A stretch of DNA of 55,123 bases from contig JACRKZ010000037.1 of assembly GCA_016235455.1 (NCBI GenBank), forward strand, positions 1 to 55,123. Direction: 5' to 3'. The first letter of the stretch is position 1. Each line of letters opens with the position of its first letter. The stretch comes from Armatimonadota bacterium (GTDB lineage Bacteria > Armatimonadota > UBA10988). The position numbers and the translations under genes are program-made. The notes under the pieces were generated by a model that saw only the letters and a list, made by a program, of their open reading frames with translations, had not been told where the DNA came from and ran no database searches. Positions 4,699 through 55,123 of this stretch are shown in pieces.

Positions 4699-4935
4699 TC
4701 AGTGCGGCCGGCCGCAGCCACAGGAGCCGGCGTGTGGGCAGCCACCTGCGGGCGCGCTGGGGCACGACATCGCCGCGGAGTTGCCCTTGACCGCACTGGC
4801 GAACGTGGAAAAGACACGGGCGGTCTTGTGGCCCGAACAGCCGGGGCAGACGTGCCCCTCGCGCGCGGCGTCGCGCGACTGAAGCATGGTGAAGGTGTGG
4901 CCACAGTCGGCACACTTGTACTCGAAGAACGGCAT
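4699..4935 (-). CDS. FmdB-family zinc-ribbon protein
   Basis: MPFFEYKCADCG...CPGCSG...RVFSTFA and a Cys-rich tail. Confidence 0.88.
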   Translation of the reverse strand: MPFFEYKCADCGHTFTMLQSRDAAREGHVCPGCSGHKTARVFSTFASAVKGNSAAMSCPSAPAGGCPHAGSCGCGRPH

Positions 4936-4951
4936 CGCTCTCGTCACCTCA

Positions 4952-5422
4952 CTACCATTGTACCGCCAAGCGGTTGAGCAAGCGACCCTCGGGCACGATT
5001 CCCAGGGCCACGCGCGCGGCCATGACCCCACCCGCCACATCGGCGCAGCGGCCGTCGAGCGTGACGAGGCCGGCGCGCGCGCCAACGCGGATGAGCCAGG
5101 CGTTGGTGCCACGACACAGCGCCAGGCGATGCTCCACCGAGCGCGCCAGCGTGCCGTCGCTGAGCCACTGCGCGCGCCGGCTATGCTCGGGCCAGGGCCG
5201 CTCGATGCCCAGTTCCAGGCTCAACGCGGCGGTGGTCTGCACGTCGCTGCGGAAGGCGAACAGCCGACCGGGCATGGCCGCCACCAGCCAGGCCAAAGCG
5301 GTATCGTCGGCCAAGGCGGCCAGGAGTTCGGGCTTATCGGCGGGGAACGGCAGGCCGGCGGTCACGGCGTCCAGCCGGCCCAGCAGCACGCTCGGTTCGC
5401 TCAGTTCGATTGGTGCCGACAT
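4952..5422 (-). CDS. hypothetical protein, DUF2795-like N-terminus plus BON-like domain
   Basis: GLPFPADKPELL resembles DUF2795; SDGTLARSVEHRL...IRVGARAGLVTLDG...LLNRLAV resembles BON; GAGG RBS before the ATG at 5422. Confidence 0.55.
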   Translation of the reverse strand: MSAPIELSEPSVLLGRLDAVTAGLPFPADKPELLAALADDTALAWLVAAMPGRLFAFRSDVQTTAALSLELGIERPWPEHSRRAQWLSDGTLARSVEHRLALCRGTNAWLIRVGARAGLVTLDGRCADVAGGVMAARVALGIVPEGRLLNRLAVQW

Positions 5423-5489
5423 GGTCGCCTCTCGTGTGTACAATGGTAGCCGATGCACGGTTCGCTGGGAGCCGTGCGCGGGGAATCTG

Positions 5490-6557
5490 ATGCAGCGTCG
5501 ATCGTGGTCGTGGCTCGGGTGGATGGCGGCAGCGGTGGTCGTGGCGGGGTGCTCGTCATCCACCACACCGGCCCTCGCGGAGTCGCGGCTACGCGCCTAC
5601 AACTCGGTGAACGACCTGTTGGCCGGCGATCTGTGGGACGTGAGCCGCCGCGCGCGCGTCATCAGCGACCTGCGCGACGTGCCAGCCGGTTGGCCGATCG
5701 TCGGCATCGGCACCACCGACCGCGCCCTGCGCAACGGCGAGATCGTCGTGCGCGGCACGGCCAGCGCACCGTCCATCCTGTACACCGACCCAGACCAGCG
5801 CGGCGCCGCCACGCAGGTCAACGAGGACGGGCTGCCGTTCATCGCCGTGGCCGCCTGCGATCCCGCCAAGATGGTCAGCATCACCGCCACGGCCGGGCAG
5901 ACGCTGCACGACCAGGTCAAGGCCGCCGCCGCCGCGCAAGGCTGGGAGTATGCCGCCGTCAGCGTGACCGGCCGATTCAACACCGTCAGCTACTCCGTGG
6001 CCTATGATCTGCGTAAGGAAGGCTCGCCGCTGGACGACCCGAACACGGTCGTGAGCAACTACCTGCGGCTGTTCACCGCGCCCGACGAGGCGCCCTGGTC
6101 GTTTGGTGGCTTCTACGCCAGCAACACCAGCGGCCAGGCGTTGCTCAGCATCGGCGGCAAGGCCGTTCACCTGCACGGCACCACCGACGACCTGACGCGC
6201 GGCGGCCACCTGGGCGCGGCCACCGTGGTGAACGCCGAGATCCGCATCTGGCCGCTGACCCGCCGCGATCTCTATCAGGTGGATCTGACCGCCGACCAGG
6301 TGGAAGTGTTTGGTGACATTGTCACCTACCGCGTGCGCAACCTCGGCGCCAACGAGGCCGCGCGCGTGCCGGTGCTGGTCAAGAACGGCGCCACCGTGCT
6401 CTACAGCGGCACACTCGGCCCGCTGGGACCGGGCGCCAGCCGCATCCTGCAGGTCATCGCCACCGATGCGGTGACCGCCGCCAATGTGTCGGTGACCGTG
6501 GACCCCGACAAGGCCATCGCCGAGTCCGACGAGACCAACAACACCGCCAGCCCGTAG
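5490..6557 (+). CDS. lipoprotein with acetolactate decarboxylase-like domain and C-terminal CARDB/Ig domain
   Basis: Lipobox VAGC; GIGT...NGEIV, LPF and HLHG...GGHL motifs; C-terminal VRNLG...VTVDPDKAIAESDETNN. Confidence 0.7.
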   Translation: MQRRSWSWLGWMAAAVVVAGCSSSTTPALAESRLRAYNSVNDLLAGDLWDVSRRARVISDLRDVPAGWPIVGIGTTDRALRNGEIVVRGTASAPSILYTDPDQRGAATQVNEDGLPFIAVAACDPAKMVSITATAGQTLHDQVKAAAAAQGWEYAAVSVTGRFNTVSYSVAYDLRKEGSPLDDPNTVVSNYLRLFTAPDEAPWSFGGFYASNTSGQALLSIGGKAVHLHGTTDDLTRGGHLGAATVVNAEIRIWPLTRRDLYQVDLTADQVEVFGDIVTYRVRNLGANEAARVPVLVKNGATVLYSGTLGPLGPGASRILQVIATDAVTAANVSVTVDPDKAIAESDETNNTASP

Positions 6558-6675
6558 ATCAGTTGCGCATCCCGCCGCGGTATTGCACACTCGCTGCAAC
6601 GCGATGACGGGCCTGACGTCGCGTTGCACCTGGCGACCCGCCCCTCAACGCCAACCAACACAGCGGGAGGTCGTC

Positions 6676-9276
6676 ATGCGCAAGAAATGGCGGCGTTGGG
6701 CTCTGGCCAGCCTGGCCGGAGCGACGGCAATTGTGATGGGCGCCTGCGGCAGCGACACGGGCGGCCCGACGCGGACCCTAAGCGGCACGGTCAACGAAAC
6801 AGCCTTTGTGGTCGGACCCAATGAACGCGTCGCCTGCCGGGGCGACGTGACGGTGAACTGTGAGACGGCCGAGATCACCGGTCGGCTGTACAGCCAGGCC
6901 GGCGGCACCGCCGGCGCGGCGGGCGGCAACCTCGTCATCGCCGCCACTGGCACCATCTCGGTAACCGGCCAGATCGCGACCGGCGCCGGCGCCGCCGGTG
7001 CGGCTGGCGCGGCCGGCGGCCAGGGCGGCAACCTGCGCCTCTCCGCCACTCAAGGCATTACCCTCGGCGCGGCGGCAGGTCGACAGACCGGCGGGCCGCT
7101 CCTGCAGACGGGTTCCGGCGGCAACGGCAGCGCGTCGACCACCGGTCTCGGCGGAGGTGGTGGCGACGGCGGTGACCTGCTACTCCAGTGCCCCGGCGGC
7201 ACGCTGACCCTCCATGCCGCGGCCGGGCTGATCGCCCTGGGCAACGGCGGCAACGGCGGCAGCGGTGTGGGCCGAGTGACGGCCGATACCACGCGCACGG
7301 TGCTGGCGGGCGAGACCAACCGGGGAGGCGACAGCGGCAACGTGCTGGTCTCGGCTCAGGCCGTGGTCGGCGCTGAGACCGGCGAGGCCGCAGCCCCGGC
7401 GGATTCCGGTCTGACGGGCCCCGTGGGCATCATCTACCTGCCCGCCGGCACGCTGACGGGTGGCGTGGGCGGCAATGCCGGCGCCCTCGAAGTGTCCATG
7501 TCGGCGCCCGCGGCACGGCAGTCAGCTGAGAGCCCGGCACCGCGACAGCGAGAGCAGTCCCATCTGGTCTTCGATCGCGTCGGAGCACCCGGAGGCTGGG
7601 GCCTGCTAGAAGGTGGCGTGGGTGAGGATATCCGCCACACCTGGCCGTCGCCGTTGCCAGACGAAACGCCACTGGAGGCGGAGGAGCGGGACAACGGTAC
7701 CCCGGCGTTCGACGTGAACATCACGGGAGGTCGAGGAGCCGACAGCGGCACGAGGCTCAACCCCGACCTACCTGCCGGCAGCGAGGCCGCGCAGGTCATG
7801 GTGAACCTTGGTGGGGAGTACGCCGGCGGGCGCGGCGGCAATGTCGAAGCGCACGGCAAATGGGGCCGGCACGGCGCTCCGGGGACCAAAGCCGGCACGG
7901 GCGGCACCAACACGTCTCACGGCGGCGCGGGTGGCGATGTCTACCTGCCCGAGTTCCCCGAGGAGGGCCCGGCCACGCCTCGGCCCGGTCACGGCGGCTC
8001 GGCCATTGCGATCGGCGGCCCTGGCGGCCTGCCGGGCAACGGCTGCACGGTGTCTCCGCAGCTGCCAGGCGGCGATGGCGGTGACGGCGGCGACTGCCAC
8101 ACGTTCGGCGGCGATGGCGGCTGGACGAAGGGTATCGATGGCGCCGCGCGCGATGGCCAGCCGCGCGGCACCGGTGGCCTCGCCCAGGCGCAAGCCGGTA
8201 GCGCTCGCTTTGGCGGCGATGGGACCACGGCAGGACAGGCGGGCAGCAGAGGCACGGCCACCGCGGTCGTCGGCACCGGCGTGGCGCCGGGCGACCAGGC
8301 GCCGGAAGCGGTGGTCGAGCCCGGCAACACCGCCTTGCCCGGGAACCTGTGCGCCGGCGCCACCCGACAACGCCTGTTCCGCACGCTCCGTGGTGGCTTC
8401 AACTACGTGCGGCCCTGGACCGTGCTCACCGAGACGCTGGCGAGCTCGCGCCAGGCCGGAACGGCATTGGGCGGTGCCACCCACCCGATCAGCGTCTTCC
8501 CAGGGCAAAGCATGGCGCTCAACACGGCTCGCACGATCCTCTGGATCTCCAGCGCGGGCAAGCTGCGACGCTACAACGACCCGCTCACCGGCGGCGACCG
8601 AGCGCCGCTCTGGGAGTTGGACCCGCCGGCCTTCGTGAGCTACTCGTCGCTGGCCTATGCCAATTCGCGCGACACGCTGTACGCCTCGGTCGGCGGCCAT
8701 GTGGTGTACTGGCGTAGCGCGGCGGCCATGACCACCGCGCGCCAACCCGATGGCGACTGGGTCATCGACGGCACCTACTGCGACACGCTGTGCTACGACG
8801 ACTCCAACGACCGCATCTTCGCGCTGGGCAACAACGACCTGGTGGTCGTCAACTCGCCGAGCACCAAGACGGGCACCATCGCGGCCACCAGTCGGCTGCT
8901 CCTCTCGGCGGTGACCAGTGCGTCGTTCGCGAGTGCCCGTGGCCTGGCCTGCGACTCCGGCGGCAGCCTCTACTTCGGGGTTGCCAACCATGGCTCCGGT
9001 GACGCGCTGACCCACGAGGTCAGAGCGGTGCCGCTGCCACCGTGGCCCGCCACGCCCACCGTGCGCGTCATCGGTGGACTCGACGGCCAGGTCGAAGGGC
9101 TACTGGCCCTCTCGCGCGACGACATCCTGATGGTGGGCACGCGCGGCAGCAACTACGTGTACCGGAACGCCAGTCAGCGTGATACCGGCAACAGCGCGCC
9201 GTCGGCGACCTCCACCGGCACGCCCATCGGCTGGGTCGGCTGGACCGAGATCCAGGACGTGCCAGCCACGCGTTGA
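6676..9276 (+). CDS. large glycine-rich lipoprotein with C-terminal beta-propeller
   Basis: GGAGG RBS; signal peptide ending MGAC; many GGxGG repeats; C-terminal ~300 aa with blade-like repeats. Confidence 0.75.
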   Translation: MRKKWRRWALASLAGATAIVMGACGSDTGGPTRTLSGTVNETAFVVGPNERVACRGDVTVNCETAEITGRLYSQAGGTAGAAGGNLVIAATGTISVTGQIATGAGAAGAAGAAGGQGGNLRLSATQGITLGAAAGRQTGGPLLQTGSGGNGSASTTGLGGGGGDGGDLLLQCPGGTLTLHAAAGLIALGNGGNGGSGVGRVTADTTRTVLAGETNRGGDSGNVLVSAQAVVGAETGEAAAPADSGLTGPVGIIYLPAGTLTGGVGGNAGALEVSMSAPAARQSAESPAPRQREQSHLVFDRVGAPGGWGLLEGGVGEDIRHTWPSPLPDETPLEAEERDNGTPAFDVNITGGRGADSGTRLNPDLPAGSEAAQVMVNLGGEYAGGRGGNVEAHGKWGRHGAPGTKAGTGGTNTSHGGAGGDVYLPEFPEEGPATPRPGHGGSAIAIGGPGGLPGNGCTVSPQLPGGDGGDGGDCHTFGGDGGWTKGIDGAARDGQPRGTGGLAQAQAGSARFGGDGTTAGQAGSRGTATAVVGTGVAPGDQAPEAVVEPGNTALPGNLCAGATRQRLFRTLRGGFNYVRPWTVLTETLASSRQAGTALGGATHPISVFPGQSMALNTARTILWISSAGKLRRYNDPLTGGDRAPLWELDPPAFVSYSSLAYANSRDTLYASVGGHVVYWRSAAAMTTARQPDGDWVIDGTYCDTLCYDDSNDRIFALGNNDLVVVNSPSTKTGTIAATSRLLLSAVTSASFASARGLACDSGGSLYFGVANHGSGDALTHEVRAVPLPPWPATPTVRVIGGLDGQVEGLLALSRDDILMVGTRGSNYVYRNASQRDTGNSAPSATSTGTPIGWVGWTEIQDVPATR

Positions 9277-46321: not shown

Positions 46322-47113
46322 ATGCCACTGCCTGACCAACCCCGCAGCGTGCTCGACTTGTTCCGCCTGGACGGGCGCCGCGCACTGGTCACCGGCGGCT
46401 CCAAGGGGCTTGGTCTGGCCATTGCCACCGCCCTGGCCGAGGCCGGGGCCGAGGTCGTGCTGGTCAGCCGCACGCTGGCCGACTGCCAGACCGCCGCCCA
46501 CTCGGTGACCGCGGCCACCGGCCAGCGCGCGTGGGGCATGGCCGCCGATGTAGGGGTGGCCGCGCAGGTCGACGCCCTCGCCGCGCAGGTGGCCGCTGAG
46601 GCCGGCGCGGTCGACATCCTGGTCAACAGTGCCGGCATCAACATCCGCCGGCCCATCGCCGAAATGACCGAGGCTGACTGGGACGCCGTGGTCGGCGTCA
46701 ATCTCAAGGCGCCGTACCTGCTGTCCCGCGCCTTTGGCCCGGCCATGGCCGCGCGCGGCTGGGGCCGCATCATCCACCTGGGCTCGATCATGTCGCAGGT
46801 CAGCATCGCCGGTCGCTCGCCCTACGCCTCGGCCAAGGCTGGGCTGCTGGGCCTGACCCGCACGCTGGCGCTCGAATGGGCCACCACCGGCGTCACCGTC
46901 AACGCGCTGTGCCCCGGCCCCTTCGCCACGGAGATGAACCTGCCGCTGCTCAACGACCCGGCGCAGTACGAAGCCTTCGTGGCCAAGATCCCCATGGGCC
47001 GCTGGGGTGAACTGCACGAGATCACCGGCGCGGCGCTGTTCCTGGCCAGCGCCGCGTCCTCGTTCGTCACGGGCAGCGCGCTGTACATCGACGGCGGGTG
47101 GACGGCGCAGTAG
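46322..47113 (+). CDS. SDR family oxidoreductase (KduD/gluconate 5-dehydrogenase-like)
   Basis: [26 protein letters not shown]. Confidence 0.92.
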
Positions 47114-47291
47114 TTGGCCGTCGCCCGGAGCCGCCGGCGCGGCGCGGCCGGCGGGGTTCAAGCGCCTGTCACATTGCCCTCGCGGCGACAGACTTTGTTG
47201 CGCTCGACCGCACAGCAGACCATCAAACTGGAGTACTTTGGTGGTCTGCGGCCGGGTCACTGCCGGAGCCGACCGCGCGGGGAGATGCGTA

Positions 47292-50200
47292 TTGCCCGGC
47301 AGCGGCAACCAGGCGATGGTCGTGGCAAGCGATGCGGATCTCCGCGAGGCGCTTTGTACCGTGGTCACGCGTCTCGGGTTCGGCGCCCGCTCCCACGACT
47401 GCGCCGACGAGGCGCTGGCCGCGCTGCTCAGTGGGCCGTCGCCCCGGTGCCTGTTGGCGCAGGCCGACCTGCCCGGCACCAGCGGCGCACGGTTGCGCGA
47501 CCTCCTGGCGACCGCCCTGCCGGAAGTTCCGGTCGCCGTCGTCACCACGCAGGGCCAGGGCCACCCAGACCAAGTGGCGTGGCCAGCCGAGGAGGCGAGG
47601 CTGGTCAAGACCATCGGCGAACTGGCCGCGCGTCGCGCCGACCGGGGCGCCACCAGCGACCTGTTGATCCTCGACCCGGATGCCGTGTTGGCGCCGAGCC
47701 TGCTGGCCGAGTCGCTCGATCTCGCGTGGGGGCTGCCCATCGGCCTGCTGCAGACGCACCCCGACGGCCGCGTGCTGGCCATGAACCGCACCTGCGCACA
47801 GATCGCGCGGTGCCCCGACGGCGCGGTCCAAGCCTGGTTCTCGCGCGGCATCCGCGCGATCTACGCCGACCCGCGCGACCGCGATCGCATGCTGGCCGAC
47901 ATCAGCGAGCACGGCGTGGTGCGCGACGTGACCGTGGCCATCCAGCGCTACGATGGCACCCAGGGTTGGGTCCGCGTCAATGCCCGCATGTACCCCGGGC
48001 GCCCAGGCGAGCCGGGGCACATCGACACCTCGCTGCTGGACGTCACGGCGGAGCATGACGCGACGGCCAACCTGGAGTCCGACCTCGCCCTCGAGCGGGT
48101 GCGGTCGGCGGTGCTCGAAATGACCGACGAGGGCGACTGGTGGCACGTGGTGCATGCCTTTGCCCAGGCGGCGCGCGGCGTGATGCACTTTGTCGAGTGT
48201 GGCGTGAACCTCGTCGACTGCGACCGGCAGGAGATGCGCGGGTTCAACTCGGGTGACCCGAACGGCGACCTGGGCTACCATCGTACCGAGATTGGCCCAG
48301 CCCTGGCGCTGGTGGTCCAGACCGGCCAGGCCATGGTGCGCGAGCGGGGCGATGCCTTGTTCGGCAACGACTTCCGAGCCGAGATCAACAGCGTGGTCGA
48401 TGTGCCCTTCTCCGGGGGCACGGTGGCCCTGAACAGCACCGAGTTCGGCGCTTTTGGCCCGCGCGAGATAGGGCTCCTGGAGCACTACGCCAAGGTCATG
48501 ACCACGGGCCATCGCCGCCTGCTCGACCTGCAGGCACGAGCCCTGGCCGAGGCCGAGACCCGGCAGTCCAAGGAGCGTTACGAGGAACTGGTCCGGCGCA
48601 TTCCCATTGGTGTCTACGTGTACCGCGTGACGGCCGCGGGCGAGCGCCTGATTGAGTACGCCAGTCCGCAACTAGCGCGCATGACGGGCCACGCCGCCGA
48701 GGACTTGCAGGGCGATGCCGCGCTGGCCTTCGGCATGATCCACCCCGACGACCTGGCCGACTTCGTCCAGCACAACATCGAGACCACCGCGGCGCTTACG
48801 CCCTTCCGCTGGGAGGGCCGCGCCGTTGTCGCCGGCGAGGTGCGGCATATCCGCATGGAGTCCGACCCCACGCCGCTGCCCAACGGCGACAGCGTGTGGT
48901 CGGGCATCGTCATCGACGTCACTGAGCAGCGTGCCGCGGCGGACGAGTTGCGCCGCAGCCAGGAACGCTACCACTCGTTTGTCGCCAACAGCCACGAAGC
49001 CATCTACTGCACCGAGTTCGACCAACCCATCGACACCGGTCTGCCCACAGAGGAGCAGATCGACGCTATCTATGCCCACGGGTACCTGGGCGAGTGCAAC
49101 GCCGCCATGGCGGCCATGTACGGCTTTGAGGCCACCGAGCAGTTTGTCGGCCAGCGGCTGGTGGACTTCCATGGCGGCAGTGACAACCCGGCCAATCGAG
49201 ACGTTTTCCGGCGGTTCATCGCCTCGAACTACCGCGCGCTTGACTCGGAGACCGAGGAGTACCTGCCCGATGGCCAGCGTCGCTACTTCCTGAGCAGCGA
49301 CGTGGGCGTGGTGAGTGACGACCGGCTGCTGCGCATCTGGGGGACGGCCAGCGACGTCACCGAACGGAGGCTGGCCGAGCAGGCGCTGCGCCGACGCGAC
49401 GAGCTGCTCGCGGCAGCGGCCCAGGCGGGCCGCATGTTGCTCACCCAGGACGACCTGCCGTCCACGTTGGCGCAGATCGTGGACCGCATCGGCCCGGCCT
49501 CCGGACAGGATCGCGCCTACCTCTTCGAGTTCCATCCCGACACCGATGCCGGCCAGGTATCAGCCTCCTTGCGGTACGAGTGGGTGCGTGACGGAGTCGA
49601 GCCCCAGATGGCCTCGCCCCAACTGCAGGACATCCCCTTCGCGGAGTTGGCGCCGTACTCCTGGTCGCGGCTCGGCCGCGGCGAGTGCGTCTGCGCCCGA
49701 GTGGCCGACCTGCCCGAGACCGAGCGTGCCGTGTTGGAGCCGCAAGGCATCCTGTCCCTCCTGCTCGTGCCCATCCAGGCGGACGGCGCGGCCTGGGGCT
49801 TCATCGGCTTCGACGCCTGCACCGCTGCCTACGACTGGCGCGCGGGCGAGCAGGCCGCACTGATGAGCATCGCCGCTGCCATTGGCGGCGCGGTGGAGCG
49901 ACTGCGTGCGGCCCAGGCCCTGCGCGAGAGCATGGAGCGCAACCGGACGCTGGTGGACGCCAACCCCGACAGCTTCTTTGTGATCTCAGCCGACGGCACC
50001 ATTCTCGACGCCAAGACCGAGCGCGCGGACAGCCTGCTCCCACCGGCGACGTACTTCGTCGGTAAGCACGTCAGCGAGGTCCTGCCCGACGATACCGCGG
50101 CGCTCACCGCAGCCAAGATGGCCGAAGTGCTCCTCGCTGACCAGCCGGTGACCTACACCTACAGCATCGAGTTCCCCTCGGGCTGGCATGACTTCGAGTG

Positions 50201-51788
50201 TCGCCTGGTGCACTGGGGCGCGGATTCGCTCATGGCGGTCATCCGTGACGTCACCGAGCGGCGCCAGGCGGAAGCCGAGCGAGAGCGGCTCATGGTGGCC
50301 ATCGAGCAGGCGGCCGAGACCGTGGTGATCACGGACGCGCAGGGCACCATTCAATACGCCAACCCGATGTTCGAACAGGTCACGGGCTATGCCCGCGCCG
50401 AGGTCATCGGCCAGAACCCGCGCATCCTCAAGAGCGACCAGCAGGACGCCGAGACCTACCGCGACCTGTGGCGCACCATCAGCCAAGGGGCGACCTGGGT
50501 CGGCCGCCTGATCAACCGGCGACGTGACGGCACGCTGTTCACCGAAGAGGCCAGCATCTCACCCGTGCGCGACCACAACGGCGTGGTCACCAACTACGTG
50601 GCGGTCAAGCGCGACATCACCTCGCAGTTGAGCCTGGAAGCGCGGTTGGCCCAGGCGCAGAAGATGGAGTCCGTGGGCCGGCTGGCTGGTGGCGTGGCCC
50701 ACGACTTCAACAACATGCTCGGGGTCATCCTAGGCCATGCCGAGACGGTGTTGGAGCAGGTCGAGGTCGACTCGCCGCTCCACGCCGATCTGGAGGAGAT
50801 ACGCAAAGCCGCGCTGCGGTCGGCCGACCTGACGCGCCAGCTTCTGGCCTTCGCTCGGCAGCAGACCATCTCGCCGCGCGTGCTCGACCTCAACCACACG
50901 GTGGGCGGCATGTTGCGCATGCTCCAGCGCCTCATCGGCGAATCCGTGGCGCTCGACTGGCAGCCAGCCGACAACCTGTGGCCAGTCTGCGTCGACCCCT
51001 CGCAGATCGACCAGATCCTGGCCAACCTGTGCGTCAACGCGCGCGACGCCATCGGCGGCAGCGGCCGCGTGACCATCACCACCAGCAACCGCACCGTGGC
51101 CGCCGACCAGGCCGACGCCGATCTGGCACAGGGCGAGTACGTCTGTCTGGCCGTCACCGACGATGGCAGCGGCATGGATCCGCACACTCAGGCGCGCATC
51201 TTCGAACCGTTCTTCACCACCAAGCAGCTGGGCGAGGGCACTGGCCTGGGACTGGCCACCGTCTATGGCGCCGTGCGCCAGAACGACGGCGTGGTTCGCG
51301 TCGACAGCTCGCCCGGCCAGGGCACCACGTTCCGCATCTTCCTGCCGCGACACCTGGGCGACGGCGCGGGCGAGTCGCAGTCCGCCCCCTCGCACCGACC
51401 ACGTCGCGGCGAGGGGACCATCCTCCTGGTCGAGGATGAGCCGGCCATTCTGCGCATGGCGCAACGCATGTTGGGCCGGCGCGGCTACACCGTCCTCGCC
51501 GCACCCACGCCCAGCGACGCGCTGCGTGTCGTGCGGGAGCACGATGGAGCCATCGATCTGGTCATGACCGACGTGGTCATGCCCGAGATGAACGGCCGCC
51601 AGCTCGTGGAAGCGATACGCCAACTGCGACCCGGCATCGGCGCGCTCTTCATGTCAGGCTACACCGCCGACGCCATCGCCGACCACGGCGTGCTCGACGC
51701 CGGCGTGGAGTTCATCGCCAAGCCGTTCACCACGCGCGACCTCGCGGCGACCGTGGAGAGGATCCTCGGTAGCCAGGAACCCGCCTGA
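47292..51788 (+). CDS. hybrid sensor histidine kinase, paralog of 42800-46312 with an extra PAS+GAF module
   Basis: Same H-box, ATPase and REC motifs; about 328 aa longer. Confidence 0.93.
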   Translation: MPGSGNQAMVVASDADLREALCTVVTRLGFGARSHDCADEALAALLSGPSPRCLLAQADLPGTSGARLRDLLATALPEVPVAVVTTQGQGHPDQVAWPAEEARLVKTIGELAARRADRGATSDLLILDPDAVLAPSLLAESLDLAWGLPIGLLQTHPDGRVLAMNRTCAQIARCPDGAVQAWFSRGIRAIYADPRDRDRMLADISEHGVVRDVTVAIQRYDGTQGWVRVNARMYPGRPGEPGHIDTSLLDVTAEHDATANLESDLALERVRSAVLEMTDEGDWWHVVHAFAQAARGVMHFVECGVNLVDCDRQEMRGFNSGDPNGDLGYHRTEIGPALALVVQTGQAMVRERGDALFGNDFRAEINSVVDVPFSGGTVALNSTEFGAFGPREIGLLEHYAKVMTTGHRRLLDLQARALAEAETRQSKERYEELVRRIPIGVYVYRVTAAGERLIEYASPQLARMTGHAAEDLQGDAALAFGMIHPDDLADFVQHNIETTAALTPFRWEGRAVVAGEVRHIRMESDPTPLPNGDSVWSGIVIDVTEQRAAADELRRSQERYHSFVANSHEAIYCTEFDQPIDTGLPTEEQIDAIYAHGYLGECNAAMAAMYGFEATEQFVGQRLVDFHGGSDNPANRDVFRRFIASNYRALDSETEEYLPDGQRRYFLSSDVGVVSDDRLLRIWGTASDVTERRLAEQALRRRDELLAAAAQAGRMLLTQDDLPSTLAQIVDRIGPASGQDRAYLFEFHPDTDAGQVSASLRYEWVRDGVEPQMASPQLQDIPFAELAPYSWSRLGRGECVCARVADLPETERAVLEPQGILSLLLVPIQADGAAWGFIGFDACTAAYDWRAGEQAALMSIAAAIGGAVERLRAAQALRESMERNRTLVDANPDSFFVISADGTILDAKTERADSLLPPATYFVGKHVSEVLPDDTAALTAAKMAEVLLADQPVTYTYSIEFPSGWHDFECRLVHWGADSLMAVIRDVTERRQAEAERERLMVAIEQAAETVVITDAQGTIQYANPMFEQVTGYARAEVIGQNPRILKSDQQDAETYRDLWRTISQGATWVGRLINRRRDGTLFTEEASISPVRDHNGVVTNYVAVKRDITSQLSLEARLAQAQKMESVGRLAGGVAHDFNNMLGVILGHAETVLEQVEVDSPLHADLEEIRKAALRSADLTRQLLAFARQQTISPRVLDLNHTVGGMLRMLQRLIGESVALDWQPADNLWPVCVDPSQIDQILANLCVNARDAIGGSGRVTITTSNRTVAADQADADLAQGEYVCLAVTDDGSGMDPHTQARIFEPFFTTKQLGEGTGLGLATVYGAVRQNDGVVRVDSSPGQGTTFRIFLPRHLGDGAGESQSAPSHRPRRGEGTILLVEDEPAILRMAQRMLGRRGYTVLAAPTPSDALRVVREHDGAIDLVMTDVVMPEMNGRQLVEAIRQLRPGIGALFMSGYTADAIADHGVLDAGVEFIAKPFTTRDLAATVERILGSQEPA

Positions 51789-51818: not shown

Positions 51819-53153
51819 CTAGCAGGGCCGCGGCGCCGATCCGGTCCCCAGCGGCCGGTCCGCCAGCCGCCAGAACACCTCACGCACCGCCTCCTTCATG
51901 CCCGCGCAGGCCACTCCCGGCCGGCCGAACTCGCCGTGCACCGCGTAGCTCTCGCCCGCGCACCCGCCCAGACACCAGTGCCGCGCCCAGCAGCCGCCGC
52001 ACGGCCGGCGCGCGGCCAGCGCCGTTTGCCGCCGGACTTCGGCCAGCGCCGCCGAGCGCCGCCAGACCCGCGCCGGCGGCTCGCTGCGCACGTTGCCCGC
52101 GGCGAAGGCCTCACCCACGAAATTGGGGCAGGGATAGAGCGTGCCGTCGGCATCGAGCAGCAGCGTCTGGCTGCCGGTGCCGCAACTGCGGCGCGGCGCG
52201 CAGCCGTGGCAGGTCTGGGCGAAGATGCTCGCAAAGTCGCGGCCGAGCAACCCCGCCAGCGCCGGGTCGCTGTCCGCCGCCTGCCAGATGGCGCGCAGCA
52301 GGTTGACCGGCTTCGGCGGCTCGAAGGCCTGGCCCGGCCCCATCTGGCGTACGGCGATGCAGCGCGCCTCGGCCACGCCGAGGCGTTGCGCCAGCCGCAG
52401 ATACGGCTCGATGGCGGTCAGGTTGCCCGCGTGGACGACCATGCTGATGACCACCAGCGCGCCGGCCTCGACCAGCCGCGCCACGCCGGCCAAGGCGCGG
52501 TCGAAGGTGCCCGGTCCGCGCACCGCCTCATGGCCGGCGGCGTCGGGTCCGTCGAGCGACACCTGCACGTCCAGCCCGCACTCGGCGGCGCCGCGGGCAA
52601 AGGCGTCGTCCACGTACAGCCCGTTGGTGGAGACCATGGGTCGCAGCCCGCGCCGCCTGGCCCAGCGCGCCAGGTCGAGCGTATCCGCCGGCCGCAACAG
52701 CGGCTCGCCGCCGAGGATGGCCAGCAGCGCGCCCGGCGCGGTGTAGCGGCGCAGGCCGTCGAGCGCGGCGGCCAGCTCCAGGCCGGACAGCTCGGCGCGA
52801 TCCTGGTGCAGCTCAGGCTGGTTGTAGCAGAAGGCGCAGCGCAGCGGGCAGCGGTTGGTGATGTTGACCGCGATGCTCTCGATGCGGTCGCGCGCGGGCT
52901 GTCGCGGCCGGCGCGCGAGCACGCCGGCGCTCTTGAGCCGCCGGATGATGCCGGCCGCCGCCTGCGCCACGGCATAGTCGGCGCGCCCGCCGGTCAGCTC
53001 GGCCAGCGCGGCTGCCGGCGACTTGCCCTCGACCAGCGCGCCGATGAAGCGGTCGGCCTGTGGGTCGATGACCGTCCACCAGGGCGCATCGCCCCACACC
53101 AGCAGGACGCGGTCGCCGCGGCGCTCGCGGATGTCGGGCGGCGGGAGGGTCAT
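51819..53153 (-). CDS. radical SAM/SPASM domain protein with RRE/PqqD-like N-terminus
   Basis: CPLRCAFC, GGEPLL, STNG, VSLDG; SPASM cysteines CGTG...YPC...CGGC...CLGGC...C; ATGA overlap with the upstream gene. Confidence 0.92.
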   Translation of the reverse strand: MTLPPPDIRERRGDRVLLVWGDAPWWTVIDPQADRFIGALVEGKSPAAALAELTGGRADYAVAQAAAGIIRRLKSAGVLARRPRQPARDRIESIAVNITNRCPLRCAFCYNQPELHQDRAELSGLELAAALDGLRRYTAPGALLAILGGEPLLRPADTLDLARWARRRGLRPMVSTNGLYVDDAFARGAAECGLDVQVSLDGPDAAGHEAVRGPGTFDRALAGVARLVEAGALVVISMVVHAGNLTAIEPYLRLAQRLGVAEARCIAVRQMGPGQAFEPPKPVNLLRAIWQAADSDPALAGLLGRDFASIFAQTCHGCAPRRSCGTGSQTLLLDADGTLYPCPNFVGEAFAAGNVRSEPPARVWRRSAALAEVRRQTALAARRPCGGCWARHWCLGGCAGESYAVHGEFGRPGVACAGMKEAVREVFWRLADRPLGTGSAPRPC

Positions 53154-53449
53154 GGTCGCCCAAACAAGCTGCCGTACACCGACACACGCTGTAAGGCTAT
53201 GCCGGCGACCGCGAGTGTGGCCACCGTTACCACCGCCAGCGGTATCCGCCAACGCCGATTGGCCAGCAGTGTGGCGGTCACCAACGCCAGCCCCGTGACC
53301 AGCAGGCCGAGCCCCAACTGCGGCGTGCTCCAGACTGACGCAGACCATTGCTCGACCGCGACGACATAGCCCATGTGCGCCGACGCGCTGCGACTGCTGT
53401 CCCCCGCCGCCAGCACCCGCGGGGCCGTGGCGTCGGTCCTCGACGTCAT
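53150..53449 (-). CDS. small 2-TM membrane protein with N-terminal PRVLAAG-x8-HMGY motif
   Basis: 99 aa, two hydrophobic helices, ATGA overlaps at both ends. Confidence 0.75.
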   Translation of the reverse strand: MTSRTDATAPRVLAAGDSSRSASAHMGYVVAVEQWSASVWSTPQLGLGLLVTGLALVTATLLANRRWRIPLAVVTVATLAVAGIALQRVSVYGSLFGRP

Positions 53450-54162
53450 CGCACGACCTTCCCCATCCCCGTTGGCCAGCCCGGCAGCTTGGCCTTCGGG
53501 TCGCGCGGCGGCCGCGCATGGGGCCAGACCTTCTCTTGCAGGTAACTCGCCCGCAGCCAGTGCACCACCTCCTCGTCGTCGGGCGTGCCGAACAGCCCAT
53601 CGGCGCCCGCGACGCGGCTGTCGCACCACAGGTAGTCCGGCGCGAGTCCACGGTCGTCAGCCCAGATGGCGTAGGCCTTCCACGGCGCGCTCAGGTCGCC
53701 GTGGTCGCGCGTGTTGGGTGGCGGCGCCAGTTCGAAGTGGACCGCCTTGCCGCGCGGCCCGACCGGCTCGCCATGCTCCGCATGCCACTCCTCGGGCGTC
53801 GGCCAACGGCCCAGCGCCGACGCCTGCGCCTCAGTCGATGCGGACAACCGCTCAATCTGCTGGAGCGCGGTGATGGTCTCGGGCAGGAGCACGCGCTTGC
53901 GCGCACGACCCACGTCCATGCCCGCCACCAGCGCGACCGACGCAGCCACGAGCACGCCGCAGCGCGCCGCCGGACGCCATCGCTCGCGCGCCGCAACGGC
54001 GAGCAGGAGCAGCGCCAAGCCCACGCCGCACAGCCCCGCGGTGAGGCCCGGCCTGGCCGGCACGAGAGTCATCTCGATCGTGCCACCAACCACGTAGCCG
54101 ACGTGGGAGTAGACCTGGCCGGTCCGCGAGCCTTCGGCCAGCAGATGCGGCGTGCCCGTCAT
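53446..54162 (-). CDS. membrane protein with PHLLAEG-x8-HVGY motif and GspG-like domain
   Basis: GAGGTG RBS; two TM helices; LSASTEAQ...GRWPT; GADGLFGTPDD; WPHARPPRDP tail. Confidence 0.8.
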   Translation of the reverse strand: MTGTPHLLAEGSRTGQVYSHVGYVVGGTIEMTLVPARPGLTAGLCGVGLALLLLAVAARERWRPAARCGVLVAASVALVAGMDVGRARKRVLLPETITALQQIERLSASTEAQASALGRWPTPEEWHAEHGEPVGPRGKAVHFELAPPPNTRDHGDLSAPWKAYAIWADDRGLAPDYLWCDSRVAGADGLFGTPDDEEVVHWLRASYLQEKVWPHARPPRDPKAKLPGWPTGMGKVVR

Positions 54163-55058
54163 GGCTTCACCTCGTTCGGCGCCGCGGGCCAGGGCGGGAG
54201 CTTGACGTTCGGGTCGCGTGGCGCGCGGGCGTGGGGCCATTCCGCCCGGCCGAAGCGGCTGGGCGGCAGCTTATACTGGAGCGGATCGTCGCCCGTAGCG
54301 AACAGCCCGTCAGCGCCGAACTCCTCGCTCAGGAAGCGGCGGTTGTTGGCCGGAGGACCCGGAGGCTGGCAGACGACGGTGTACCGCCGCCAGTTCGGCG
54401 CCACGACATAGTACGGATCCGGCAGGCGGGTCGCCGGGCCGTATTCGAACCGGCTACCGTCCACACCCACCGGCCGACCATGCTCGGTCTGCCATTCGGC
54501 GGGGGTCGGCCAGTGGCCCAGCCGTGCGGCCTGCGCCTCGGTCGAGGCCGACAACTGCTCCAGTTGCAGCAGGTCGCTGAGCACCACCGGCTTGAGGCTG
54601 CGCAGCGCGGGCGCGGTGAGGGCCGCGCCCAGGACGATCACCCCCGCGGCGCCGACGGCCACGCGCCCGACCCGATCAGGTTGACTCTGCGCCAACGAGG
54701 CCAGCACGCACAGCAACACGCCCCACAGCACCGGGTGCATGGTCCAGTGGACACGGAGGTCGAGCAGACCCTCGTTTGCAAATGGCCTGAGCGGCACTTG
54801 CAGCGCCACCACGGCCAGCCCGGCGACCAGGGCCAACGCGAACCGCCCTACCAGTTCGCGCAGCCGCGGCGCATGGCGACTGCCCCAGGCGAGCAGCATC
54901 AGAGCCAGCAACACCGAGCCCTCGACCGTGTGTGGCGCCACCCGCCGGTAGTCGCTGACATCGGCGGTGAACTGGATGACCGAGTAGCCGACGTGCGTGT
55001 AGGTCCTGGCCTGCGACTCGCCCGCGGCCAGCAGCCTGGGTGCTGTAGTCGGTGTCAT
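54159..55058 (-). CDS. membrane protein with PRLLAAG-x8-HVGY motif and GspG-like domain
   Basis: About four TM helices; LSASTEAQ...GHWPT; GADGLFATGDD; WPHARAPRDP tail. Confidence 0.8.
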   Translation of the reverse strand: MTPTTAPRLLAAGESQARTYTHVGYSVIQFTADVSDYRRVAPHTVEGSVLLALMLLAWGSRHAPRLRELVGRFALALVAGLAVVALQVPLRPFANEGLLDLRVHWTMHPVLWGVLLCVLASLAQSQPDRVGRVAVGAAGVIVLGAALTAPALRSLKPVVLSDLLQLEQLSASTEAQAARLGHWPTPAEWQTEHGRPVGVDGSRFEYGPATRLPDPYYVVAPNWRRYTVVCQPPGPPANNRRFLSEEFGADGLFATGDDPLQYKLPPSRFGRAEWPHARAPRDPNVKLPPWPAAPNEVKP

Positions 55059-55123
55059 GGCACGTCCCCCTTCGCAGTCGGCCAGGGCGGCAGCTTGACG
55101 TTCGGGTCGCGCGGCGCGCGGCC
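55055..55123 (-). CDS. 3' end of a further paralog of the array (truncated by the window edge)
   Basis: Translates to GRAPRDPNVKLPPWPTAKGDVP*, near-identical to the tail of 54159-55058; ATGA overlap. Confidence 0.8.
   Translation of the reverse strand, partial: GRAPRDPNVKLPPWPTAKGDVP

Follow-up and report, generated by a model that had tools for sequence, protein, structure and literature searches.

A radical SAM/SPASM maturase gene linked to tandem genes for membrane-anchored HxGY proteins, its probable substrates, in Armatimonadota

Nearly everything known about maturases of the radical S-adenosylmethionine (SAM) superfamily with a SPASM domain concerns small free peptides. Here, we describe a gene cassette in which such an enzyme is genetically tied to membrane proteins. 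It was found in a contig of 55,123 nucleotides (nt) from an Armatimonadota bacterium (JACRKZ010000037.1; hereafter the window, by which the whole of this stretch of DNA is meant), where positions 51819-55123 hold a radical SAM/SPASM maturase gene and a tandem set of paralogous genes whose products, named here HxGY proteins, share an H-x-G-Y motif in an N-terminal tail. The linkage of these genes, the conservation of their products, the identities of the domains and the mode in which the tail is predicted to dock on the enzyme were obtained by computation, and together they make it, in our judgement, fairly probable that the HxGY tails are the substrates of the maturase. In its general form, the cassette would comprise an optional CPBP intramembrane protease, the radical SAM/SPASM maturase and one to five HxGY proteins encoded in tandem.

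A preliminary description of the window, made from the sequence alone, had reported at least four paralogs and the radical SAM/SPASM gene chained by ATGA stop/start overlaps, and these overlaps are indeed present at 4/4 junctions (55055-58, 54159-62, 53446-49 and 53150-53, on the minus strand as printed). The frame of the fourth paralog ends at 55055 and extends beyond the edge of the window, while the three complete paralogs have the sizes originally given (299, 238 and 99 amino acids, aa) and differ, as stated at that time, in the number of hydrophobic segments, which are two or about four. The strings quoted for their exactly spaced N-terminal motif were also exact, and the spacing G-x8-H-x-G-Y is identical in all three.

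The same motif defines a wider family. An exhaustive profile search in a library of 1.84 billion protein representatives retrieved 73 proteins at E ≤ 0.001, 57 of them with E ≤ 1e-10, superseding a word-based homolog search that had found just 7 proteins; the family is rare, with about 60 clusters at 50% identity in that library. The set analyzed here contains 66 members, all shorter than 400 aa, and was obtained after removing nine long repeat proteins whose match was limited to a DGxxGTxDD segment (P0051, P0054, P0069, P0070, P0073, P0074 and P0076-P0078) and three fragments or N-terminally truncated sequences without the tail (P0014, P0060 and P0071). H-x-G-Y lies inside the first 45 residues in 66/66 members with a complete N-terminus, the tail consensus over 91 distinct contexts is [YF]-x-H-[VL]-G-Y-x-[SAV]-A, and four of the nine invariant columns of a 48-sequence alignment fall in the tail. 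Three types of leader are found, namely PRLLAxG (in the window), MRIEYxG (in the majority of the members) and MKLxAHS, and the basic residue lies 14, 15 or 16 residues ahead of the His. In the AlphaFold2 (AF2) model of the 238-aa paralog, tail residues 1-29 are disordered, with a predicted local distance difference test score (pLDDT) of 44-52 vs. 87-98 for most of the rest of the protein, as would be expected for a peptide substrate. Some members consist of the tail and a membrane hairpin only (the 99-aa paralog of the window, the 101-aa P0079 and the protein of genome G186), and this short form is, judging from these sequences, a conserved one. Furthermore, some genomes carry short HxGY proteins only, of about 100-150 aa and with little or no pilin-like domain (locus L057, G002:C101, 6871-7745), and in G186, a genome in one contig, the short HxGY gene (L066, about 8610-8950) is the sole family member found beside the maturase.

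To evaluate the linkage of the two genes, one set of 401 genomes of the phylum was searched with the HxGY profile (E ≤ 1e-5) and again with the maturase (E ≤ 1e-30); about 45 family members known as proteins only were left out of this count. A narrow HxGY profile (A2), which had found the family in 0/60 other genomes, was superseded by the broader profile A3 because it had been built from the subfamily of the window only. On the raw lists, the maturase clade occurs in 18 genomes and the HxGY family in 16, with 14 in common. Once the loci were read, an HxGY gene was found within 300 nt and on the same strand in 17/18 maturase genomes, which span 15 genera, so that the co-occurrence of motif and enzyme clade, proposed as a check in the preliminary description, is borne out. 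Of the four genomes with only a maturase on the raw lists, three (G186, G203 and G243) have an HLGY gene, divergent or short, immediately downstream of it. The sole exception among the 18 is G372, in which no HxGY gene is present and a fragmented maturase gene lies near a transposase-like open reading frame (ORF); this locus is apparently a degraded remnant of the cassette. Its maturase homolog is distributed over at least two frames, with one TGA (G372:C55, L070, about 6508-7230, with a neighbouring ORF at 4881-6101). Nor is the motif widespread without the enzyme: in the 401 genomes, the only true HxGY gene without a visible maturase is that of G193, which starts 56 nt from a contig edge. 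A further HxGY match, in G257, was judged false, as it covers the C-terminal domain only and has no tail motif.

Outside the window, the maturase gene comes first and is followed by one to four HxGY genes; paralogs upstream of the maturase are found in the window only. The intergenic gaps in the cassettes are mostly shorter than 50 nt, and when all ORFs from 20 loci were compared with one another, only the maturase, the HxGY proteins and the CPBP protease recurred in more than three loci, with no recurring transporter or other peptidase. Two metagenome contigs also hold CPBP, maturase and HxGY genes; one of them (L015, with the order CPBP, radical SAM, three HxGY genes) is independent, and the second was counted together with the G301 locus, and not separately, because its scores are identical to those of that locus. 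Two further loci are worth recording. Genome G250, which holds a complete cassette, has a second maturase paralog (L063, G250:C251, 6757-8223), 37-39% identical to the enzyme of the window and preceded by a 1001-aa sensor-like ORF, with no HxGY gene within the 296 nt left before the contig end. In G203, a homolog of the 23S rRNA intervening-sequence protein (PF05635, 134 bits; L064, G203:C259, 4982-5347) lies two genes upstream of the cassette, and is probably unrelated to it.

The maturase and its predicted contact with the tail

The maturase of the window (P0001) matches the Pfam models Radical_SAM (PF04055; residues 96-243, 66.6 bits vs. a cut-off of 29.5) and SPASM (PF13186; residues 324-389, 31.6 vs. 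21.5 bits), and TIGR04085 with 57.1 bits vs. 27. The CX3CX2C signature (C102/C106/C109) and eight conserved downstream cysteines are found in 15/15 members of the clade (alignment A4), the SPASM cysteines of P0001 being C324-x12-G337-x4-C342 and C385/C388/C394/C398/C416. CX3CX2C, CX12GX4C, one further Cys and a Cys at or near the C-terminus are invariant across the 15-member alignment, and the CX2CX5CX3C block is conserved as well, but its first Cys is absent in 5/6 maturases of the MKLxAHS clade. In these five enzymes, His-Ala/Gly-x replaces the Cys of the C385 column of P0001, which suggests an altered second auxiliary cluster in that clade. The terminal residue is a Cys, or a Cys followed by one Gly, in 15/15 maturases (C444 in P0001; window 51819-51824), and C444 may be a cluster ligand. 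In the tree of the maturases, two clades with 100/100 support match the leader types of the HxGY proteins (MKLxAHS vs. MRIE/PRLL). The enzyme reaches no NCBIfam equivalog cut-off, as it scores 121/625 bits for StsB (NF045574), 119/265 for MftC (TIGR03962), 87/381 for PqqE (TIGR02109), 87/340 for PapB (NF047865), 70/450 for DynA (NF041298), 54/445 for YhhB (NF041707) and 60.7/453 for QhpD (TIGR03906). Its closest solved relatives by sequence are PqqE (6c8v, 72 bits) and CteB (5wgg, 64 bits). A contig scan with the maturase gave just two distant loci (27% identity, Clostridia), which were set aside.

The 15 aligned maturases share a conserved N-terminal domain of 90 residues. When the alignment of this domain (A6) was compared by hhalign with an alignment of 14 PqqD-family sequences taken from related genomes (A7), a match of 75.3% probability was obtained (E 2.5e-5, residues 28-79), and because of this profile-profile match the domain is treated here as a probable recognition element (RRE) for the leaders of ribosomally synthesized and post-translationally modified peptides (RiPPs). 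The top match of the domain profile in the PDB, non-significant at E 0.17, was TfuB1 (6jx3_B), a protein that binds lasso-peptide leaders.

The complex between enzyme and tail was predicted from the maturase alignment and residues 1-36 of the HxGY alignment, with our own alignments as input and with three controls. The scores obtained were 0.76, 0.76 and 0.79, compared to 0.00 for the best of the three controls; in the calibration, the mark set for this score is reached by 58/80 solved complexes and by 2/110 mismatched pairs. The runs share at least 59% of the contacts, with a partner pLDDT of at least 52. Confident contacts are predicted for tail residues 2-17 with maturase residues 15, 25-36, 53, 61-76, 313-319 and 427-434, and the tightest pairs are those between tail residues 5-11 (PHLLAEG) and maturase residues 25-33. 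According to this model, the PxLLAxG segment of the tail is predicted to dock on the PqqD-like domain. RRE-leader complexes have already been solved, and the docking mode predicted here is the same, with the leader as an added beta strand. The preliminary description had regarded the tails as leader and core of the substrates of an RRE enzyme; this view has gained from the linkage, the PqqD-like domain (at 75% probability) and the predicted docking, and is kept here as a probable one.

Membrane topology, the protease and the fate of the tail

By a crude hydropathy scan, 55/66 members of the family have two transmembrane helices. The loop of this hairpin has 0-9 residues and is rich in K/R, with D/E in just 3 cases, so that, by the positive-inside rule, the loop would be on the cytoplasmic side, with the tail and the C-terminal domain on the outer face. 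The AF2 model of the 238-aa paralog (mean pLDDT 84.9) shows, after the disordered tail, a helical hairpin and a confident C-terminal domain, which reaches a pLDDT of 83.3 when modelled alone. This domain, usually present in HxGY proteins, looks pseudopilin-like in the models. With VIA-align, the top match of the domain model is EpsG (4lw9), with a root-mean-square deviation of 4.0 Å over 95 residues and a Z of 6.0, which is below the safe level of the tool; Z ≥ 5 was reached by just 4/48,161 chains, all four of them pilins or pseudopilins, as are all the matches in rows 1-11. The comparison by hhalign with the GspG of the same genome (PF08334, 96 bits) gave 76% probability and E 2.2e-5. Pfam T2SSG (PF08334) matches 4/48 members, weakly (best E 0.0065), and in the Protein Atlas the best scores were 0.85 for unnamed clusters and 0.84 and 0.81 for T2SSG-bearing ones, all below 0.9 and to be read as leads only. 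Foldseek found no match in the PDB at E ≤ 0.001 with either the full model or the domain model, and VIA-align on the full model returned generic helical hairpins only. Since residue 1 of the domain model aligns at about pilin residue 27, the second transmembrane helix (TM2) would occupy the position of the pilin helix alpha1-N. A GxDGxxxTxD[DE] loop, similar to that at the C-terminus of GspG, is present in 56/66 members, 46/66 carry the C-terminal tail H[GAS]Rx[APRK]R, and a search by regular expression found the prepilin-peptidase motif G-[FM]-[ST]-L-x-E in 0/66. Neither the pseudopilin-like domain nor the charge distribution that places the tail outside the membrane had been part of the preliminary description. 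In the window genome (G000), the N-terminal part of PF07596 (DUF1559/SBP_bac_10) is matched 99 times, for the most part by ORFs of 210-300 aa, which indicates that pilin-like proteins form a large family in this organism; there is a single canonical T2SSG match (contig C169).

The third component is a CPBP/Rce1-like protease. Against a cut-off of 22.4, PF02517 gives 64.8 bits for the protein encoded next to the array of the window genome (contig C53, see below) and 62.9 bits for that of L015, and in the former the motifs EExxxR, FxxxH and HxxxN read EECYFRG, VVAHLG and LHAGWN. In the MRIE/PRLL clade, to which the window belongs, the CPBP gene is directly upstream in 10/10 evaluable loci, two of which were checked with Pfam.

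We propose that each HxGY protein would bind to the PqqD-like domain with its first 10-15 residues, which would add a beta strand to that domain, and that the radical SAM/SPASM core would modify H-[VL]-G-Y, about eight residues past the leader segment, in the cytoplasm and on the newly made protein. The likeliest chemistry would be a cross-link or another C-H functionalization at the side chains of His and/or Tyr. His and Tyr are both invariant and lie three residues apart, on either side of an invariant Gly, which points to a cross-link between side chains, and dynobactin is a known case of His-Tyr links formed by a SPASM enzyme; in view of the low DynA score of P0001, this likeness is one of analogy and not of membership. 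The two-helix hairpin would then insert with its short basic loop inside, leaving the modified tail and the pseudopilin-like domain outside, and the CPBP protease, where present, would trim or release the tail. That a modification takes place, its possible chemistry, the order of the steps, the topology and the part played by the protease are all inferred from the genes and the models. A more specific form of this proposal, which we consider possible and hold tentatively, is that of a self-exporting membrane-borne RiPP: the tail would be modified in the cytoplasm, exported without a transporter by the insertion of the hairpin, and then either displayed on a pseudopilin-like stalk or freed by the CPBP protease. 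The lack of a transporter gene and the paralogs made of tail plus hairpin fit release after self-export, while the conserved pilin-like domain and the clade without an adjacent CPBP gene fit display. The preliminary description had favoured a membrane-tethered product over a free RiPP, and this part of it is not established, since the CPBP protease of the cassette could cut the tail off.

Among the alternatives, the one that survives best, although we regard it as unlikely, takes the end product to be a free peptide: the hairpin would flip the modified tail across the membrane, the CPBP protease would free it, and the pseudopilin-like domain would act as a follower or anchor. It shares the substrate claim with our proposal and differs from it in the fate of the tail only. 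The constant position of the CPBP gene upstream of the cassette in the clade of the window, the lack of a transporter gene recurring in any of the 20 loci and the conservation of the short paralogs all speak for it, as does the tandem arrangement of multiple precursors, which is typical of RiPPs. However, CPBP genes are not adjacent in the MKLxAHS clade, no motif for a cleavage site was recognized, and the conserved loop and C-terminal tail of the pseudopilin-like part (56/66 and 46/66) would be superfluous for a mere anchor.

It is rather improbable that the HxGY proteins are not substrates at all, and serve as membrane partners, docking sites or immunity-type proteins, with the true substrate encoded elsewhere or of non-peptide nature. 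In favour of this are the placing of the tail outside the membrane by the positive-inside rule, the position of H-x-G-Y outside the confident predicted interface, and the use of non-peptide substrates by some SPASM enzymes, although the models of two enzymes considered in this respect, AhbD (113 bits) and NirJ (82 bits), score far under their cut-offs. Yet no other conserved ORF is found in or near the cassettes, with their short gaps, the enzyme probably has an N-terminal domain of the peptide-recognition type, the tail is predicted at the canonical leader site of that domain, and the invariant residues are in the tail and not in the membrane part. Least likely of all, and scarcely probable in our view, is that the N-terminus is a sorting, insertion or protease signal of an unusual pilin-like family, with the CPBP protease in place of the prepilin peptidase and the radical SAM gene linked for another reason: the pilin-like look of the modelled C-terminal domain with TM2 in place of alpha1-N, the missing prepilin-peptidase motif, which would require another protease, and the about 99 prepilin-like genes of the genome agree with it, but it leaves unexplained why the radical SAM gene is the most constant neighbour (17/18), why the CPBP gene is missing in one clade and why the motif is retained in short forms without the pilin-like domain.

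Returning to our own proposal, that the tails are modified by the maturase, several points weigh against it or against parts of it. The RRE assignment is just ~75% probable by hhalign, and the Pfam PqqD model (PF05402) matches 0/15 maturases at E ≤ 10. As RRE-leader complexes have been solved, the result of the docking may reflect likeness to them rather than the binding of this particular pair; furthermore, H-x-G-Y (residues 20-23 of P0003, the 238-aa paralog) is not among the confident predicted contacts. A tail on the outer face is away from a cytoplasmic Fe-S enzyme, so that the modification would be needed before insertion, and this raises the question of when and where the enzyme reaches the tail. 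The 17 genomes with both genes are kin and do not represent 17 independent events. The CPBP gene is not adjacent in the MKLxAHS clade (0/3 evaluable loci), and CPBP genes lie elsewhere in 5/5 genomes of this clade. Finally, in the window genome, the count of five paralogs and the link to the CPBP gene rest on an overlap of 141 nt within a repeated region.

The array in the window and its continuation

The window is the complete contig C117 of a genome of 6.5 Mb in 185 contigs, with ~70% G+C. The preliminary description had proposed to look for further genes beyond position 55123. The last 141 nt of the window are exactly the start of contig C53, and its last 60 nt are present in no other contig; if the two contigs are joined, the array has five paralogs and is preceded by a CPBP protease gene (Table 1).

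Table 1. Genes, domains and tail motifs of the HxGY array in the window and, where indicated, on contig C53.
Feature	Position	Strand	Remarks
Radical SAM/SPASM maturase gene (444 aa, P0001)	51819..53153	-	Last in the operon; ORF listing and translation, Pfam
RRE-like (PqqD-like) N-terminal domain of the maturase, residues 1-93 (probable)	52875..53153	-	Profile comparison and predicted interface
Paralog E (99 aa, P0002)	53150..53449	-	Tail and two-helix hairpin only, without the C-terminal domain
Tail motif of E, APRVLAAG-x8-HMGY (residues 9-28)	53366..53425	-	Translation
Paralog D (238 aa, P0003)	53446..54162	-	Tail, two-helix hairpin, pseudopilin-like domain, WPHxRxPRDP tail
Tail motif of D, TPHLLAEG-x8-HVGY (residues 4-23)	54094..54153	-	Residues 2-17 are the predicted maturase contact
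Paralog C (299 aa, P0004)	54159..55058	-	Tail, about four hydrophobic segments, pseudopilin-like domain
Tail motif of C, APRLLAAG-x8-HVGY (residues 6-25)	54984..55043	-	Translation
Paralog B, 3' end (full length 305 aa, P0011)	55055..55123	-	Remainder on contig C53 (L071, 73-990)
Paralog A (about 237 aa)	L071 (contig C53) 987-1700		Upstream of paralog B
CPBP/Rce1-like protease gene	L071 (contig C53) 1660-2301		Directly upstream of paralog A; PF02517

In the public contigs of four sequencing runs (X1-X4), no piece spans the array, and the join of C117 and C53 is not confirmed in this way; one contig of 470 nt from run X3 reaches 65 nt beyond the end of the window. Four joints seen in these contigs have sides of just 20-23 nt and probably reflect the repeated junctions of the paralogs. 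About 30 single-base variants were recorded over the array in the same contigs (window 52500-55123), and variants and joints together fit strain variation and repeats, the latter having probably broken the assembly at 55123. Words of the array are present in the groundwater metagenome runs of one study, which possibly includes the source of the genome, and partly in the freshwater metagenome runs of a second study; no RNA run is among those listed as containing them.

Two neighbouring genes were also considered. An ORF of 1593 aa at 47007-51788 of the window (plus strand), convergent with the maturase gene, looks by eye like a hybrid histidine kinase with multiple PAS/GAF domains and a receiver domain at its C-terminus. 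On the other side, a 713-aa DUF2961 protein (PF11175, 150.6 bits; L071, 2343-4481, minus strand) is encoded directly upstream of the CPBP gene, and is probably outside the system, because it does not recur in the other cassettes.

Relation to known systems

The window paralogs are matched by no Pfam or NCBIfam model, and four cluster look-ups gave no name. For the HxGY family and for the cassette as a whole, no curated model or database name was found, nor any publication among search listings and the openings of abstracts; within these sources, the earlier opinion that this is not a described family holds. With this cassette, RRE-guided radical chemistry would reach the N-termini of folded membrane proteins that are probably related to pseudopilins, and would be tied to the CPBP proteases, whose bacterial substrates remain mostly undescribed. 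If the tail is exported by its own protein, the cassette would represent a new route for the delivery of peptides modified by radical SAM enzymes to the cell surface, and its HxGY proteins would form a new class of pilin-like proteins that carry a modification. With few genes, a short leader and an invariant core of four residues (H-[VL]-G-Y), the system lends itself to direct testing.

The closest known systems are the RRE-dependent radical SAM/SPASM maturases of RiPPs (PqqE/PqqD, CteB, StsB-type, MftC), which share with the cassette the radical SAM core, the SPASM domain with its full set of auxiliary-cluster cysteines, the N-terminal domain, here probably PqqD-like, the adjacent and often multicopy substrate genes and the docking of the leader as a beta strand, predicted in our case. 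Their substrates are peptides of 20-60 aa, whereas the putative ones described here are membrane proteins of 100-310 aa in which residues 1-25 would hold both leader and core, with a hairpin and a folded domain behind them. Also different is the partner, a CPBP protease instead of a peptidase-transporter set of the C39/S8/M16 type. A precedent for modification ahead of export is QhpD; this radical SAM/SPASM enzyme introduces cross-links into the small subunit of quinohemoprotein amine dehydrogenase before the subunit is exported. As in the QhpD/QhpC system, a SPASM enzyme would modify, still in the cytoplasm, a protein bound beyond the cytoplasmic membrane, but no dehydrogenase subunit genes are found here, and the substrate would be a membrane protein with a different motif. 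GspG/EpsG and the type IV pilins, which give the best structural matches to the modelled C-terminal domain, differ from the HxGY proteins, which lack the prepilin-peptidase motif and in which an additional N-terminal tail and one more transmembrane helix come before the equivalent of alpha1-N.

CPBP/Rce1-like proteases are involved in peptide maturation or in bacteriocin immunity; one of them, MroQ, acts in the processing of the staphylococcal autoinducer. The protease of the cassette resembles these in its PF02517 domain, in its motifs and in the neighbouring genes for membrane-associated precursors, and differs in its coupling to a radical SAM/SPASM maturase, for which a full-text literature search, as judged from its listings, gave no described case with a CPBP/CAAX gene. 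Radical SAM/SPASM enzymes with an RRE and adjacent multicopy precursor genes are therefore already known, and what is new in the cassette is the architecture of the substrate and the protease partner.

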